From a virus: DNA of 64,000 nt. The notes beneath the pieces are model-generated. The model saw nothing but the letters and a program-made list of their open reading frames with translations. It ran no database searches and was not told the origin of the DNA. The translations under genes and the position numbers were made by a program. The stretch is from positions 1 to 64,000 of the IMG/VR virus record IMGVR_UViG_3300045988_102008; one strand, written 5' to 3'. Below, piece by piece: positions 5,616 through 37,037 of the stretch; the first letter of the stretch is position 1; each line of letters begins with the position of its first letter.

Positions 5616-6003
5616 ATTAGATAAAGTGGTTAAGATCCTAAAAGAAAAAGGATTTATTGTGTATAAGAAAGGCGGGAAAGAGCCAGGTGTGTTTTATGCT
5701 AAAGAAGGCGACAGTCGAATAGGGTTCGTTTATCCAAACAACGGATATATATACGACAGGATAAAAATATGGTCTTTTTCAAGGGTGTATAAACCGCATA
5801 AGAAAACAGGGTCTTCGTGTTTAATGTGTGTCAGCGACGAATTTACTATAGAGAATGCGATTAAGAACATAGAGGATAGACTGTGGGTAAATTACATAAA
5901 AGACGGTAACAGAAAACGACCAGAAGAATATAAAAATATAAGAGAATTTGTTGGTAGCTTCACTAAATTCTACAGCTCTGTAGAATTAGTTGAGGTTAAG
6001 TAG
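5593..6003 (+). CDS. Hypothetical protein
   Basis: ATG start, 136 aa. Confidence 0.55.
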   Translation: MKMNVENKLDKVVKILKEKGFIVYKKGGKEPGVFYAKEGDSRIGFVYPNNGYIYDRIKIWSFSRVYKPHKKTGSSCLMCVSDEFTIENAIKNIEDRLWVNYIKDGNRKRPEEYKNIREFVGSFTKFYSSVELVEVK

Positions 6004-29669: not shown

Positions 29670-30383
29670 ATGTACATCAATTTCAGACAACTTGCAGCAT
29701 CAGACATGACCCCTAATGATCTGGCTAATCTTCTTGCTATAAGACAGAAGGATACGGTTATGATCGAAGCCATGCTGGAAAAAGATGCTGGGAGGTATAT
29801 AGAGCTTGGCCTGGTTGAGAAATTAAAATCAGGTGTGATGAGATTAACCAACAAAGGAACGTCTTTTGTGAATTATATAGAGACACCGGAAATGGCGGAC
29901 GAGGTCCTAGAAACGTTGAAGATTATGATAGGAATGTACGAATCATATTCAAAAGACATAGGTGTCAGCAGAAAAGAAGCGGAATCCAGATTATGTTGGT
30001 TTATGGGTAACACCTCATTCAAGAAAGAGGTCATACTTCAGGTAACGGAATCTTATATAGCAGAGTCAGGAGATTATACGATGAGCTTATGTAACTTCAT
30101 ATGGAAACCGCCTTCTCAGGCTTTTTCAGTCCATATGAACCTTAAAAATTCAAAGCTCTTTGACTTAATAGCTGAAAAATTTAAGATCGCTACCGAGCCT
30201 TATTTGGAGTCTAAGAAGAATAAGGAAATGGATTGGTTGTTTGCCGTATCTAAATTGCCTACGCCGCCGGCTAAAGGCAATCCGGATTATTTGTTTACCG
30301 GAAGTTCTGAAACAGACAAAGAGCGATTGAAAAACATAAAAACATACTTATTTAACAAAATTAGAAAGCAATGGAAAAAGTAA
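29670..30383 (+). CDS. Hypothetical protein (237 aa), first gene of the ACP/NfeD/flotillin cluster
   Basis: ATG 3 nt after the upstream stop. Confidence 0.55.
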   Translation: MYINFRQLAASDMTPNDLANLLAIRQKDTVMIEAMLEKDAGRYIELGLVEKLKSGVMRLTNKGTSFVNYIETPEMADEVLETLKIMIGMYESYSKDIGVSRKEAESRLCWFMGNTSFKKEVILQVTESYIAESGDYTMSLCNFIWKPPSQAFSVHMNLKNSKLFDLIAEKFKIATEPYLESKKNKEMDWLFAVSKLPTPPAKGNPDYLFTGSSETDKERLKNIKTYLFNKIRKQWKK

Positions 30384-30622
30384 GAATCAGAAAGATAATA
30401 GAGGATATAATTATTACTCAGTTTCTTAATTCGGAAATGGATATAGTTCATGAAGAAGATGTGTCGTTTAAAGAACTTGGATTAGACTCTATTGATCGAA
30501 TTGAGCTTGATGCGATGGTGGAACAAAAATTCAATATTGTTATTATTGATTATGATATGGAGACCATCAAAGATATGACTGATCTTGTTTACAAAATAAT
30601 AACAGAAGGGTATGGGAAGTGA
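30371..30622 (+). CDS. Acyl-carrier-protein-like protein (PP-binding domain)
   Basis: SFKELGLDSIDRIELDAMVEQKF aligns with the ACP motif [24 protein letters not shown]. The Ser in LDSI is the predicted phosphopantetheine site. Confidence 0.65.
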   Translation: MEKVRIRKIIEDIIITQFLNSEMDIVHEEDVSFKELGLDSIDRIELDAMVEQKFNIVIIDYDMETIKDMTDLVYKIITEGYGK

Positions 30623-31106
30623 TATAATTTTATGCATGGCTTTAATAGCGTCATTTGCTTTTGTTATACAGTTTTTGTTGTCGATATTAGGATCTGATCT
30701 GGATACGGATATTGACATTAACAGCGCTTCTGATTTAAGCATGTCTTTGTCGGACATCATATCATTCAAGGGCATAACACATTTTATTCTTGGATATAGC
30801 TGGACCACATACTTTTCGGGTTCCCATTTAGTAGGGGTCGTAATAGGGTCGTTTTTCTTTATCGTTTTGTTTTATGTATATAAGTTACTTCTTAAGTTAA
30901 AGCAAGAAATGGTGTACGAATGTCCGGAAGATTTAAATGGCAGAGAGGTGGAGATAGTGTTTAGATCAGGGAAGAATCATTATATGGTAAATATTGTGAA
31001 AAATGGAAGACAAGAGCAAATGAGAGTAAGATGCTTGTCTGGAAAAAATTACAAAAACGGTGACAAGGTGAATATAAAATACGAAGAAGGAGAATTAAGC
31101 ATCTAA
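30612..31106 (+). CDS. NfeD-like membrane protein (YuaF/YqiJ-like)
   Basis: Three N-terminal TM helices plus a C-terminal G/V-rich beta-barrel-like tail. Immediately upstream of the flotillin gene, as in nfeD-floT operons. Confidence 0.6.
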   Translation: MGSDIILCMALIASFAFVIQFLLSILGSDLDTDIDINSASDLSMSLSDIISFKGITHFILGYSWTTYFSGSHLVGVVIGSFFFIVLFYVYKLLLKLKQEMVYECPEDLNGREVEIVFRSGKNHYMVNIVKNGRQEQMRVRCLSGKNYKNGDKVNIKYEEGELSI

Positions 31107-31139
31107 TTTTTTTTTATCAACAATTAAATTTTAAAAGTT

Positions 31140-32840
31140 ATGACAATAATCATGTACGTGTCAGCTATTTTAGCTGTAGTGATTATTTTGACAATCATCG
31201 GAGTCTTATCAAGGTATCGTAGATGTAAGCCTAATCAAGTCTTGGTCGTTTATGGTAAGACAGGTGGGGAAAAGAAATCGGCGAAATTATATCATGGTGG
31301 AGCGGCATTCGTCTTGCCTATTATTCAAAGCTATGATATTTTGTCTATGGAGCCTATGCAAATAGATTGCAAGCTTACCGGTGCTTTGTCATCTCAGAAT
31401 ATTAGAGTAGATGTACCTACGACCATTACAGTAGCTATCAGTACAAATCCCGAAATCATGCAAAATGCGGCAGAAAGACTTTTGGGGATGGATACCGAAT
31501 CTACTGAAAATCTTATTACGGACATCGTTTACGGTCAGATGCGTTTGATTATTGCTGAAATGACAATCGAAAAACTTAATTCTGACAGGGATGAGTTTTT
31601 GGATAAGGCAAGAAAGAACATTGATAACGAGCTTAATAAGTTAGGTCTTTACCTCCTGAACATCAACATCAGTGACATCAGAGACGAAGCCGGTTATATT
31701 ATGAACCTTGGTAAGGAGGCTGAAAGTAGGGCTCTGAACGAAGCACAGGCTAATATCGAAGAACAGGAGAAACTGGGTGCTATTAAGATTGCTGTACAGC
31801 AAAAGGAAAAAGAAACGGCTGTAGCTAATACCCAAAAAGAGCAAGAGATTCAAATTGCCTATACTGAAAAAGAAAAGGAAACGGTAGTAGCTGAAACAAA
31901 GAAAGAAAAAGAAGTAGCTTTGGCTTTAACCGATAAAGAAAAACAGATCGGTGTAGCTCAAGCCGATAGAGATAGGGCTGCGGTTATTGCAAAGACTTTG
32001 GCTGATAAGGAATCAGCGATCGCAAGATCTAAGGCAGAACTTGAAGTAAACAAAGCTGAAGCCGAAAGAATGGAAGAAGTCGGGAAGAATAAAGCTGAAG
32101 CTGATAAACAAGCAGCTATAGCAATACAAGACTCTGAAGCTCAGATTAAGAAAGCTGAGGCTGAGAAAAATGCTTCTGTAGGCTACAACAATGCTCAGAA
32201 AGAGGTTGCTGTATCAGAATCAGAGCTACAGGTTATCAAAGCTCAATCAGAAAAGAAAGCCGGAGAAGAGAGAGTTAAATCGGAAGCGGCTGTAAAAACA
32301 GCAAAAGAGCTTGCCGACAAAGAAGTGGAAGAAGCTAAGGCTAAGAAAGTTCAGGCTGCGCTTAAGGCTGAAAAGATTGTGCCGGCTGAAACCCAGAAGG
32401 AAGAGGCTATATTACAAGCTGATGCTGAGGCAGAGAAGATCAAACGCCGGGCTGAGGCTGAGGCGGCAGCACATTTGGCAAAAGCTGAGGCAGAGGCAAA
32501 GGCTATTCAGATGAAACTGGAGGCAGAAGCCGAAGGTAAGAAAAAGTCGTTAATGGCAGAAGCCGACGGATTTAAGGCTATGGTGGAAGCAGCAGAATCC
32601 AATCCTCAGATCGCCATCCAGTACAAGATGGTTAATCAGTGGAAAGAAATTGCCGGAGAACAGGTTAAGGCATTTGAGCACATTAACCTCGGAAATATCA
32701 CGGTATTTGACGGCGGTCAGAACAGTACCGGTAATTTTCTTAACAATGTTGTTAAGACCGTCGCTCCGGCATTGGGAGTCATTGATCAGCTTCCGATTGC
32801 AGATACTTTAAAGAAGTTAAAAGGAGATGACAAAAAATAA
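31140..32840 (+). CDS. Flotillin / SPFH (band-7) family protein (FloT/YqiK-like)
   Basis: N-terminal TM, then YRRCKPNQVLVVYGKTGG (SPFH start). Long coiled-coil with AEAEA-type repeats (AEAEAAAHLAKAEAEAKA). Confidence 0.8.
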   Translation: MTIIMYVSAILAVVIILTIIGVLSRYRRCKPNQVLVVYGKTGGEKKSAKLYHGGAAFVLPIIQSYDILSMEPMQIDCKLTGALSSQNIRVDVPTTITVAISTNPEIMQNAAERLLGMDTESTENLITDIVYGQMRLIIAEMTIEKLNSDRDEFLDKARKNIDNELNKLGLYLLNINISDIRDEAGYIMNLGKEAESRALNEAQANIEEQEKLGAIKIAVQQKEKETAVANTQKEQEIQIAYTEKEKETVVAETKKEKEVALALTDKEKQIGVAQADRDRAAVIAKTLADKESAIARSKAELEVNKAEAERMEEVGKNKAEADKQAAIAIQDSEAQIKKAEAEKNASVGYNNAQKEVAVSESELQVIKAQSEKKAGEERVKSEAAVKTAKELADKEVEEAKAKKVQAALKAEKIVPAETQKEEAILQADAEAEKIKRRAEAEAAAHLAKAEAEAKAIQMKLEAEAEGKKKSLMAEADGFKAMVEAAESNPQIAIQYKMVNQWKEIAGEQVKAFEHINLGNITVFDGGQNSTGNFLNNVVKTVAPALGVIDQLPIADTLKKLKGDDKK

Positions 32841-33379
32841 ATACAATGGCCCAAGGTTACACTTGGGCCTAATTGAAGAAGCAAAAGCAGCATTCATAGA
32901 TTTCCTGCCGGCAGGGACAGTGATTTTAAGTGCTTTACTAATTACGATATTTTTAACATGGATTTTGGACAAGATTTAGAACCAGAAGAACTGACCAAGC
33001 ATTATGATCGGTGTTATAACCCCAAATAGTATTAACCCAATATAATTCTATTATAAAAGTTTAATACATCTCTTTCAGAGATCGGGTTATTAGCCTAAGC
33101 CTTGAAACAGAGGCTACGTTATTTGAGAATAAATAGTTACCAAGGAATGTTTATCCAAGTTTCTTGCTCTAAGGATGGTGATTAAACAGGAGTAGTGTAT
33201 TTGACGAAACAGTGTTGCCATTATATAAAACCTCTTATAACATTGGCGATGGGTACTTACAGGAGAAATCCTGACTTATCCCTAACGGGATTTACATCTA
33301 CCAAGGAGACCGGAAGGTCTCCGAGGGGATGTATTAAAACATATGAATAGCTTTAAATATATTTAATAGAATATGAGAT

Positions 33380-33727
33380 ATGGAATTGATTTTGAAACAG
33401 AAGAAGAGGAGGATGAAGAGTATGACTGACGAGGAATTTGTATTGGATAATAAGAAAAAGATTATAGTAAGAAAAAGAATATCTTATTTAAACAAAGGGG
33501 ATAAAGTGTGGATTGTGTCTTCCGACGGGTATCTGCTACACACGGACGTGGTTAGAGCCGAACGCGGACGGTCTTATGTGGATATAGACGGTATCCTGTA
33601 TTGGAAACGAGGATTGGATGGCAAGCATCGTAATCGTAATAACTACATGCAGTTTGCCATGACACCAGAAGACGGTAAGAAGTATGTCGTATATTACCCG
33701 GAAGGATTTAAAGACAATGACTTATGA
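33380..33727 (+). CDS. Hypothetical protein
   Basis: ATG start, 115 aa. Confidence 0.5.
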   Translation: MELILKQKKRRMKSMTDEEFVLDNKKKIIVRKRISYLNKGDKVWIVSSDGYLLHTDVVRAERGRSYVDIDGILYWKRGLDGKHRNRNNYMQFAMTPEDGKKYVVYYPEGFKDNDL

Positions 33728-35239: not shown

Positions 35240-35626
35240 ATGGAAAAGAAAGTCACAATCAAAGAAGGGATGGATATTTTTTACAAAAATGCAGGGAAAG
35301 GTATATGGGTCTATATTGGACTTTTTGGAAATAAAGTGCTATCCATTTTAAAAAACAAAGGTGTTATTGCATGCGAAAACGATGCTGAATATTGCGTGTT
35401 GATGGATGGAGAAGATCATTTCATAAGTATAGCAAAAGACATGAGTCACGACTATTGTTGTGAGTACGTTGTAGAAAGAGCAGAAGCCTACAGAGACTAC
35501 CCCTCCAAAGGTGCTACATGCAGTGTATGCCTGTTTGAAGATAATGAGAATAAAGCAAGGGAGATGTTGAAAGAGGCGATAATAGAACTTTCAAAAAATA
35601 ATATAATAGATTGTGATGGGCTTTGA
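35240..35626 (+). CDS. Cys-rich hypothetical protein
   Basis: ATG start, 128 aa. Confidence 0.5.
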   Translation: MEKKVTIKEGMDIFYKNAGKGIWVYIGLFGNKVLSILKNKGVIACENDAEYCVLMDGEDHFISIAKDMSHDYCCEYVVERAEAYRDYPSKGATCSVCLFEDNENKAREMLKEAIIELSKNNIIDCDGL

Positions 35627-37037
35627 ACTTAGACCTTACCAGAAAGAAGCAGTAGATGCCGGGCTTGAGTTTCTTACAGGAAGATCTAAAAAGCCTGGCA
35701 TAATAGTAGCCCCATGCGGAGCGGGTAAGAGCCTTCTGATATCCAAGATAGCACATGAGATAAATAGACCAACGTTAGTATTGCAGCCATCAAAAGAAAT
35801 TCTGGAGCAGAATTATGCTAAGGCTGTATCGTTTGGCTCCGAACCTACTATATACTCTGCCTCATGTGGCGTAAAGGAAGTATCGGCTATGACTTATGCT
35901 ACACTTAAAAGCATAAAGAAAGACGTAGCAAGGTTGAAAGATACAGGGATAGATACCTTATTGATAGACGAATGTCATTCAGGATATTCTCCTGAAGAAG
36001 GTTCTGAATTTATGGAGTTTATGAGCGAGTTTCCCGAGGCGAAGGTGCTGGGCTTCACCGCCACTCCCTGCCGCCTCAGAGCCTACAGTTCCATGCTGGA
36101 AGGAAACTATAGCAAACTTAATATGCTGACAAAAGACGAGCATAACTTCTTCAAGAAGTTAGTTCATGTAATACAAATACAAGAGCTAACTTCTCAAGGT
36201 TTTTGGTGTCCACTTAAGTACGAACGATGGTCATTTGATGAATCGGCTCTGATGCTAAACAGTACCGGAGCCGAATATACCAACGAATCTATTAAAGAAA
36301 GCATCGTACGAAATGGCTTAAACAACTCTATCTACAAGCGTCTTCTTCAGCTTATGAACGAGCGTAAAGCCATTTTGGTTTGTATGGATTCTATCGAATC
36401 ATGTAATAGAATATCAGAGTTTATGAATGCCAAAATGGGAGCCATAACCGGTGTCGTAACATCGCTAACAACCAAAAAGAAAAGAGAGCAAATCATATCA
36501 GATTTCAAAGAAGGTAAGTTGAAGGTGGTTTTTAATTATTCAACGCTTGCTACCGGATTTGATTTTCCTGAACTTGATTGTGTGATGTTTGGTCGACCTA
36601 CTTTCTCATATTCAACGTATTACCAAATATTAGGCCGCGCCGTCCGCATCCATCCTGATAAGAAAGAGGCGCTGATAGTTGATTGCTGCGACAACATGAG
36701 ACGTTTTGGTCGGATAGAAGACTTGACGATCGAACAATTTCCTTCTAAGGGCTGGTGTATGTTTGCCGGCAATCAACTTCTGTCCAATATAAGGATGGGT
36801 GATATTATTACCAAAGACGAAATTCTTCGCCGGGCAGCCTCACTTAAATCTGTGAATGGAGATGGTAGGAGAGAAGACGATCTTGACAGCATAATAATGT
36901 GGTTTGGAAAATATGAAGGAATTAGATTCAAGGACATACCGGTGTCGTATTTTAGGTTCTTGGCTGAGAATATGGCAGTAAAACCGGGAGATAGGAAAGA
37001 AAAGATTATCGAATATTATAATAGGATAAAGGCATGA
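35616..37037 (+). CDS. Superfamily-2 DExH-box helicase
   Basis: Motif I APCGAGKS, II LIDECH, III TATP, VI QILGRAVR. Confidence 0.75.
   Translation: MGFELRPYQKEAVDAGLEFLTGRSKKPGIIVAPCGAGKSLLISKIAHEINRPTLVLQPSKEILEQNYAKAVSFGSEPTIYSASCGVKEVSAMTYATLKSIKKDVARLKDTGIDTLLIDECHSGYSPEEGSEFMEFMSEFPEAKVLGFTATPCRLRAYSSMLEGNYSKLNMLTKDEHNFFKKLVHVIQIQELTSQGFWCPLKYERWSFDESALMLNSTGAEYTNESIKESIVRNGLNNSIYKRLLQLMNERKAILVCMDSIESCNRISEFMNAKMGAITGVVTSLTTKKKREQIISDFKEGKLKVVFNYSTLATGFDFPELDCVMFGRPTFSYSTYYQILGRAVRIHPDKKEALIVDCCDNMRRFGRIEDLTIEQFPSKGWCMFAGNQLLSNIRMGDIITKDEILRRAASLKSVNGDGRREDDLDSIIMWFGKYEGIRFKDIPVSYFRFLAENMAVKPGDRKEKIIEYYNRIKA

Follow-up and report, generated by a model that had tools for sequence, protein, structure and literature searches.

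The subject of this analysis is a virus-borne gene cassette for a flotillin and its putative membrane partner, found in the IMG/VR record IMGVR_UViG_3300045988_102008. Positions 1 to 64,000 of that record, read as one strand, make up the stretch of DNA that was analysed, which we call the window. The window derives from a crAss-like phage, roughly 150 kb in size, whose hosts are Bacteroidales of the human gut. The region is 95% identical to GenBank OR575929.1, the genome of phage csAssE-Sib, a human-gut phage of 151 kb that encodes muzzle and ring proteins of the crAss type and carbohydrate-binding proteins of the Bacteroides type. Because OR575929.1 already labels genes here as 'acyl carrier protein', 'transmembrane protein' and 'flotillin family protein', the bare observation is part of public annotation, and the kind of element, a bacterial nfeD-flotillin operon serving as a phage auxiliary gene, is known. 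New are the recognition of the partner gene, the Bacteroidales origin, a modularity of two genes and not four, the variable slot that the genes occupy, and the purifying selection and recurrent deletions to which they are subject.

Five genes on the plus strand need to be distinguished. The open reading frame (ORF) listing begins with p237 (29670-30383), which encodes 237 amino acids (aa). It is followed by a gene for a protein resembling acyl carrier protein (ACP; 30371-30622, 83 aa, with a GLDSID motif), identified by PF00550 and phrog_5934, and by the gene of the NfeD-like flotillin partner (30612-31106, 164 aa), identified by fold, weak profile links and synteny. The flotillin gene (31140-32840, 566 aa) is recognized by PF01145 and PF15975, and the last member is a 50-aa ORF (32827-32979) with a C-terminal hydrophobic helix, read as a tail-anchored small membrane protein. 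The p237 and ACP-like genes overlap by 13 nt, the ACP-like and NfeD-like genes by 11 nt, and a 33-nt AT-rich spacer precedes the flotillin gene. The original prediction had described the first four of these as co-directional, overlapping or abutting genes in a replication block, and the two overlaps and one spacer bear this out, as do a DnaB-like helicase gene upstream and PD-(D/E)XK exonuclease and SF2 helicase genes downstream (Pfam, PHROGs). Every gene on the same arm is packed as tightly as these four, so that tight packing is non-specific evidence of a shared function. Counts of sigma-70 promoters and terminators were near the shuffled expectation, in scans whose models cover neither Bacteroides nor crAss promoters.

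The flotillin and its NfeD-like partner

The flotillin is readily assigned. Its SPFH/Band 7 domain (residues 30-211) scores 91.9 bits against PF01145, for which the cut-off is 23.6 (E 6.5e-26), and its C-terminal domain (residues 450-559) scores 39.2 bits against PF15975, Flot, for which the cut-off is 27 (E 8.6e-10). An N-terminal hydrophobic anchor at about residues 5-24 and a coiled coil rich in Ala, Glu and Lys at about residues 212-449, with AEAEA and KAEAE repeats, were read from the sequence. The SPFH domain and the AEAEA repeats had been part of the earlier flotillin call, which thus stands. The protein is a flotillin and not a FloT equivalog: NF058507, the FloT equivalog model, has a cut-off of 700 bits, of which it attains 146.5. 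With E. coli YqiK it shares 24% identity (E 6e-20), and it matches no PHROG family. A tblastn search found matches in nine of 50,697 GenBank phage records, several of which, being short and unannotated, may be host fragments.

The length of intact flotillins varies between 408 and 595 aa among alleles, owing to in-frame indels that all lie in the coiled coil (31780-32500 in the window). The DNA of this region holds dispersed, degenerate, AEAE-coding GCTGAGGCTGA repeats, and copies of GCTGA(A/G)GC(T/A)GA are spaced in multiples of 3. Tandem Repeats Finder reported no significant tandem array in the gene.

The 164-aa protein had been called NfeD-like as well, a claim that holds for fold and gene order and fails at the PF01957 threshold. 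It has no match in Pfam, PHROGs, NCBIfam or PADLOC, and PF01957 does not reach it even at E values up to 1. A profile search places it in a family of 428 cluster representatives, mostly of 160-180 aa; three of 79 family members reach PF01957, with a best E of 6e-5, and two tested Bacteroidales homologues match nothing in Pfam. The family profile gave E 0.074 with YuaF (2k14), and a full-length viral homologue in BFVD (34% identical, E 6e-13) bears the name 'NfeD-like C-terminal domain-containing protein'. Alignment of the profile with E. coli YqiJ by hhalign was co-linear and non-significant (probability 1.3%, E 0.04). The YqiJ models PF21001 and PF07290, both of which are matched by YqiJ itself, are not among the 25 most-matched Pfam families of the 79 members. 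Membership of the YqiJ family, or of NfeD at the level of hidden Markov models (HMMs), was therefore rejected for the 164-aa protein.

As direct HMM assignment to NfeD or YqiJ failed, the identity of this protein has to be argued from structure and synteny. An AlphaFold2 model built on a 78-sequence alignment, with a predicted local distance difference test score (pLDDT) of 89, shows three long hydrophobic helices (residues 2-26, 52-69 and 72-96) and a C-terminal beta-barrel (residues 112-163) of the five-stranded, OB-like type. The strongest argument is synteny: the gene lies directly upstream of an SPFH gene, and in the same direction, in the window, in two phage species and in 79 of the 80 Bacteroidales genomes described below. 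Model and gene order suggest a divergent, short NfeD-type flotillin partner, and we use the term 'NfeD-like' in this sense. Between hydrophobic helices 1 and 2, at residues 27-58, the family has an invariant or nearly invariant acidic loop, D-T-D-x-D-I-D, followed by S-F-K-G-x-x-H-F, and both motifs are kept from the phage to its Bacteroidales hosts. One guess is that the acidic loop forms a cation-binding site. The charge of the loop is at odds with a cytoplasmic OB domain under a simple positive-inside topology.

The pairing of an NfeD-like gene with a following flotillin gene is the same as in yuaF-floT and yqiJ-yqiK, a resemblance that had been proposed from the start and is upheld. Similarity of the phage pair to S. 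aureus nfeD-floA, B. subtilis yuaF-floT and E. coli yqiJ-yqiK is nevertheless low, amounting to the 24% identity with YqiK and the non-significant comparison with YqiJ.

Capture from a Bacteroidales host

The cassette is widespread among related phages. The same flotillin, at 97% identity or more, occurs on at least 164 IMG/VR contigs and in hundreds of metagenome proteins, and the gene cluster is kept in close relatives with flotillins about 98% and 83% identical to that of the window, the latter belonging to a second phage species (contigs L004 and L005). The 50-aa ORF, which overlaps the flotillin stop codon by 14 nt, occupies the same overlapping position in both species (52 aa in L004).

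Bacterial counterparts were scanned in one genome per species, which gave 80 loci in Bacteroides, Parabacteroides, Phocaeicola, Prevotella and their relatives. The host flotillins are 62-67% identical to the phage flotillin, and an NfeD-like homologue lies directly upstream in all loci save one, where the contig ends; the host NfeD-like proteins at these loci are 29-41% identical to that of the phage, and 34-46% identical in the comparison by region. The chromosomal pair and the phage pair thus agree in gene content, gene order and spacing, and the two partners have in common a transmembrane-plus-OB architecture and the DTDxD and SFKGxxHF motifs. The phage copy differs in forming its own clade, in a coiled coil longer by 33 residues, in a lower GC content, in the overlapping 50-aa transmembrane ORF, in its site within a replication block and in having suffered deletion in 15 of 80 phage genomes. 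Homologues of the ACP-like protein, of p237 and of the 200-aa, 69-aa and 50-aa neighbours were absent within 4 kb of the flotillin gene at all 80 host loci. In five host loci that were inspected downstream of the flotillin gene, a hairpin with a T-run follows in four and the next coding sequence lies close by in the fifth; none has an overlapping small ORF. The 50-aa ORF consequently looks like a phage-specific addition that belongs with the cassette and is putatively coupled to the flotillin gene in translation. The cassette is, in short, the two-gene NfeD-like/flotillin operon of the host plus this phage-specific ORF.

Outside phages, the closest flotillin is P0158, whose gene shares a cellular locus with housekeeping genes; the 165-aa gene directly upstream of it encodes a protein 38% identical to the 164-aa protein. 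In P0158 itself (659 aa; L002, 6001-7980), about 100 SPFH residues are tandemly duplicated, with STDPEVMQNAAER...NINISDIRDAA occurring twice, which could be an assembly artefact or real.

A neighbour-joining tree of the flotillins, rooted with that of Vibrio phage KIT04, places the two phage species in one clade that is sister to all Bacteroidales flotillins. Within this set the phage proteins are 66-70% identical to every host protein, and the hosts are 84-95% identical among themselves, except for a more divergent P. vulgatus copy. Divergence is unevenly spread along the protein. The SPFH domain is about 80% identical between phage and host, as against 96-97% between hosts, and the Flot domain is 80-84% identical between phage and host. 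The coiled coil falls to about 55%, with 33 extra residues in the phage, as against 84-85% between hosts. The GC content of the flotillin gene (41.9%) lies between the phage average (37.6%) and that of the B. thetaiotaomicron flotillin gene (48.9%) and is thus partly ameliorated. Taken together, the sister clade, the level of identity to the hosts, the regional divergence, the intermediate GC content and the shared two-gene synteny indicate a single capture of the host operon followed by faster evolution in the phage. The capture would not have been very recent, since the flotillin is only 62-67% identical to that of any sampled host.

The regional pattern invites another interpretation, in which the phage flotillin co-assembles with the host flotillin and hijacks it in a dominant-negative manner, redirecting or disabling host microdomains; the outcome could be to block a membrane-stress or abortive-infection response or to recruit phage proteins to the membrane. 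SPFH and Flot domains so close to those of the host, combined with a longer, strongly diverged coiled coil and a diverged partner, fit retained assembly interfaces and a changed partner or client interface, and a phage-specific tail-anchored ORF is coupled to the flotillin gene. A phage-borne copy is, however, expected to evolve faster in any case, and among the hosts, too, conservation is lowest in the coiled coil. We regard this interpretation as unlikely, if far from negligible.

Selection, recurrent deletion and the neighbouring genes

Captured genes might simply be passenger host DNA without function, or a chimera of assembly. Frequent deletion and a close likeness to host genes could be cited in favour of this, but the ratio of nonsynonymous to synonymous substitution rates (dN/dS) between the window and its close relatives is 0.06 for the flotillin gene and 0.06-0.10 for the NfeD-like gene, the same values as for the DnaB and exonuclease genes. 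Between the two phage species synonymous sites are saturated, yet the flotillins remain 83% and the NfeD-like proteins about 61% identical, and both genes must therefore be kept by selection. The presence of the cassette on so many IMG/VR contigs, in a complete GenBank genome and in many independent assemblies, its sharing by two phage species, the partly ameliorated GC content and the distance from the sampled hosts all speak against a passenger or a chimera, and this explanation is effectively refuted by selection and distribution.

Selection goes together with frequent loss. In a survey of 80 same-species IMG/VR genomes, retrieved through the ACP-like gene, all or part of the cassette is absent from 15. 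One of these contigs (L201) ends inside the flotillin gene. In the other 14 (L171, L174, L175, L187, L191, L196, L200, L215, L216, L219, L223, L238, L245 and L247), breakpoint mapping distinguished at least eight different deletions, which span 30634-33356 of the window and are independent. The commonest, in five contigs, removes 31110-32951 and is a clean loss of the flotillin gene and most of the 50-aa ORF; the next, in three contigs, removes 30986-33014 and with it the C-terminus of the NfeD-like protein, the flotillin gene and the 50-aa ORF. The remainder were each seen in one contig. Deletion of 31109-33356 takes the flotillin gene, the 50-aa ORF and a segment carrying a HEARO RNA (see later in the text), 31219-33150 takes most of the flotillin gene, the 50-aa ORF and part of the HEARO segment, and 31279-32860 takes most of the flotillin gene. 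Deletion of 31198-32228 is internal to the flotillin gene, 30634-32479 removes the NfeD-like gene and most of the flotillin gene, and 30907-32426 creates an NfeD-flotillin fusion. Some deletions thus join the N-terminus of the NfeD-like protein in frame to the C-terminus of the flotillin, and fusion ORFs of this kind were also found in Logan and ENA assemblies (P0020, P0027, P0030 and P0033), one of them in the second phage species. The 50-aa ORF is removed along with the flotillin gene in most deletion alleles, and the ACP-like gene and p237 are intact in all of them. Given purifying selection where it is present and recurrent deletion, the cassette is accessory and moron-like; it is of enough use to be retained by selection, and it is so dispensable, or so costly, that loss is frequent.

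Morons and exclusion genes often lie in variable regions, as this cassette of membrane proteins does, and it could be supposed that a flotillin scaffold alters the envelope so that rival phages cannot inject DNA or trigger lysis. Against superinfection exclusion, or inter-phage competition more generally, stand the lack of any PADLOC match for the NfeD-like protein or the flotillin and the lack of evident lysogeny in the inspected region, antirepressor-like genes being annotated elsewhere in the relative; to our knowledge, moreover, no known exclusion system uses a flotillin. We consider such a role very improbable.

The original prediction went furthest in treating p237, the ACP-like gene, the NfeD-like gene and the flotillin gene as one operon and in suggesting that a viral flotillin may remodel host membrane microdomains or modulate FtsH. 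Spelled out, the ACP would provide acyl or lipid chemistry for a phage NfeD-flotillin microdomain that modulates FtsH as HflK/C does. The ACP call itself was sound. The protein scores 28.4 bits against PF00550 (cut-off 20.8), matches phrog_5934, 'acyl carrier protein', at E 2.2e-8, and matches 58 PDB ACPs at E 1e-5 or weaker, and its GLDSI serine aligns to the DSL serine of a solved ACP. It is not an AcpP orthologue, as its best score with the AcpP equivalogs of NCBIfam is 29 bits against cut-offs of 66-106. Like the phage ACPs of phrog_5934 it is small, acidic and PP-binding and keeps the DSx serine; it differs from them in its divergence from AcpP, in a start coupled to a winged-helix gene, in a hypervariable helix II and in loss of the serine in a sister lineage.

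The ACP-like gene is unusually polymorphic: 160 loci yielded 48 alleles. The GLDS[IVL]D motif, serine included, is kept in the 40 most frequent alleles and in the second phage species; substitutions cluster in helix II, just after the serine, and three alleles (L056, L071 and L074) contain stop codons. The dN/dS of 0.4-0.6, derived from few sites, compares with about 0.06 for the neighbours. No phosphopantetheinyl transferase (PPTase), acyltransferase or fatty-acid, lipid or acyl-ACP enzyme is annotated in the complete csAssE-Sib genome, and the host AcpS would be needed for phosphopantetheinylation of the phage ACP.

The product of p237 has no match in Pfam, PHROGs or NCBIfam, and a marginal, LmuC-like match in PADLOC (E 0.002). 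Its fold comprises an N-terminal MarR-like winged-helix domain, with the winged helix-turn-helix arrangement in place, and a helical C-terminal domain. The winged helix points to DNA binding. An Sfp-type PPTase had come into question for p237 by its size and its coupling to the ACP-like gene, and was rejected, as there is no ACPS match and the fold is a different one. A weaker idea is that p237 and the translationally coupled ACP might form a carrier-dependent DNA-binding regulator like FabT with acyl-ACP.

Single-sequence scans of IMG/VR gave same-species genomes only, and the wider context was therefore taken from the p237 family, whose members occur on crAss-like contigs down to 35% identity. 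On L249 (154 kb), where the p237 homologue is 60% identical, the order is DnaB, 199-aa and 121-aa genes, the 236-aa p237 homologue, an ACP-like gene (87 aa; 5675-5938), a DNA methylase gene, 98-aa and 53-aa genes, two radical-SAM genes and the PD-(D/E)XK exonuclease gene. Flotillin is missing from this arrangement, and in the ACP-like protein Asp replaces the serine (GFDDLD), which would preclude phosphopantetheinylation. In L250 (57%) and L252 (37%) the homologue lies in the replication block, and in L251 (36%) it has a helicase gene downstream and its upstream flank is cut off; none of these three has the ACP-like gene or a flotillin. Conservation of the neighbourhood, which the earlier proposal took as a check, accordingly holds for the close relatives and breaks down in distant ones, which have p237, with or without the ACP-like gene, and no flotillin.

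The 98-aa gene of L249 seems, by eye, to be homologous to the 115-aa ORF of the window (33380-33727), with which it shares a YWKRG-DGKHR motif, and the cassette would for this reason occupy a variable slot between the ACP-like gene and the 115-aa ORF. Between the ACP-like and exonuclease genes of L249 (5941-8946) lies variable cargo of another kind: the genes for the DNA methylase and for two radical-SAM proteins (228 and 346 aa), which adjoin each other, together with a small ORF and the homologue of the 115-aa gene.

The four-gene operon has in its favour the tight, co-directional packing with overlapping start and stop codons, the persistence of the cluster in the close relatives, and the association of B. 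subtilis flotillins and E. coli HflK/C with FtsH. The observations above count against it. The ACP-like gene is absent from every host flotillin locus, the host module having two genes; L249 retains p237 and an ACP-like gene with no flotillin, and there the serine itself is gone; deletions split the cluster, taking the flotillin gene with or without the NfeD-like gene and always leaving the ACP-like gene and p237. The winged helix suggests DNA binding, enzymes of lipid chemistry are not annotated in the complete relative genome, the ACP-like gene evolves under a different regime, and the packing is common to all neighbours. A single operon of four genes is improbable, and the proposed link of the ACP to the flotillin is unsupported as well. 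A modulation of FtsH by the phage flotillin remains conceivable, and nothing observed here speaks for it. On these comparisons the ACP-like gene is a neighbour of the flotillin cassette and not a part of it, and p237 is a conserved gene of the replication block outside the cassette; both would be older genes of the phage that happen to lie next to the site of insertion. The ACP thus belongs outside the module, which corrects a conclusion drawn too readily from adjacency.

Other variable DNA lies nearby. A full-length match to HEARO RNA (RF02033, the IscB omega-RNA family in Rfam; 95.2 bits against a gathering score of 83) lies on the plus strand at 33016-33260, inside a 361-bp indel segment (33018-33378). 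Counts of carriers of this segment among same-species IMG/VR loci were 13 of 80 and 18 of 80 (about 16-22%). Phage csAssE-Sib is without the segment and has no HEARO in the approximately 150 kb scanned, and there is no IscB-sized ORF near the HEARO of the window. The segment is inserted directly 3' of TTAT, the junctions reading GTGTTAT|AACCCC and GAGATAT|GGAATT. This site presumably resembles the target choice of IS200/IS605 elements, and for that reason the segment may be a non-autonomous mobile element carrying a guide RNA only.

The second phage species has a further variable cargo site, just downstream of its dGTP diphosphohydrolase gene (L004, 13180-13707; L005, 12880-13707), where one of the two genomes carries an IS605 OrfB/TnpB-like gene and the other an 820-aa NAMPT/NAPRTase-like gene. 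SF2 helicase homologues in L250 (8014-9837) and L252 (6142-8571) bear signatures of inteins or homing endonucleases, namely Hom_end_hint, Intein_splicing and LAGLIDADG, for which the copy in the window (35613-37037, 474 aa) is too short. At about 42000 in the window the GC skew and the AT skew flip sign, which marks the switch from plus- to minus-strand gene blocks.

A proposed phage-borne membrane scaffold

NfeD is the first gene of flotillin operons, and its product has a cytosolic, five-stranded OB-like domain that binds the flotillin coiled coil and stabilizes higher oligomers; the FloA-NfeD complex is located in membrane microdomains and holds unfolded membrane proteins without ATP (PMC11222466). 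The phage proteins hold every architectural element needed for such an assembly, which is why a phage flotillin/NfeD scaffold can be proposed. The explanation we favour, and consider reasonably probable, is that the captured Bacteroidales cassette forms a phage-supplied scaffold or holdase in the inner membrane of the host. The NfeD-like protein and the flotillin would insert into this membrane during infection, and the OB barrel of the former, if cytoplasmic, would bind the coiled coil of the latter and stabilize its oligomers. The scaffold could then organize membrane microdomains and serve membrane proteins as a holdase that needs no ATP. The phage may profit by keeping the membrane of its host, or membrane proteins of its own (the 50-aa product, for example), functional in a long productive infection. 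With SPFH and Flot domains that are conserved, a coiled coil and a partner that have diverged and a 50-aa ORF that only the phage has, this scaffold may also co-assemble or compete with the host flotillin, or recruit phage proteins.

A bolder version makes the cassette an orthogonal, phage-adapted membrane platform, built from the diverged coiled coil, a co-diverged partner and the phage-only 50-aa protein. Such a platform would use the SPFH and Flot domains to take over or poison microdomains of the host, or would anchor a process of the phage, for example replication, assembly or non-lytic persistence, to the inner membrane. We give it a rather small chance of being right; if it were, having or lacking the cassette would work as a switch, dependent on the host, in natural crAss-like populations.

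SPFH genes are no novelty in phages. SPFH/Band 7 ORFs have been listed in the T4-like phages 44RR, Aeh1 and RB43 since 2006 (PMC1524935), SPFH genes occur in Vi01-like phages (PMC10892097) and in phage GIB1, and, in the words of a 2026 paper (PMC13239085), why a phage should have such a gene 'remains unclear'. Like the phage KIT04 gene, these are SPFH genes of lytic phages, none with an established function; those of the T4-like and Vi01-like phages are listed only as SPFH/Band 7 domain matches or as an SPFH lipoprotein. The annotation of KIT04 includes a full flotillin, but this is only about 30% identical to that of the window, and the 82-aa ORF upstream of it is without an NfeD-like signal. 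None of these genes has been shown to be part of a complete host operon with its partner, or has been accompanied by population deletion data. The HflK/HflC-FtsH system, with its historical link to phage lambda, is likewise an SPFH-family membrane assembly; the protein of the window has a Flot domain and a Glu/Ala coiled coil and is not HflK/C. In the literature that could be searched there was no discussion of csAssE-Sib or of a crAss-like flotillin; a paper found with crAss-like phages and acyl carrier protein does not concern this ACP gene, and searches for a Bacteroides flotillin gave vesicle reviews only.

Bacterial flotillins and their NfeD partners are nearly universal, and their physiological role is debated, mostly from studies of Firmicutes. 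The family of about 428 representatives, barely reached by Pfam, can now be put forward as the NfeD-type partner of Bacteroidales flotillins. A complete flotillin operon has been taken from a Bacteroidales host by a very abundant human-gut phage lineage, and selection combined with repeated loss makes of it a natural gain-and-loss experiment on a flotillin scaffold in infection. Phages with and without the cassette could shed light on the role of the highly conserved Bacteroidales flotillin, whose SPFH domain is 96-97% identical across genera.

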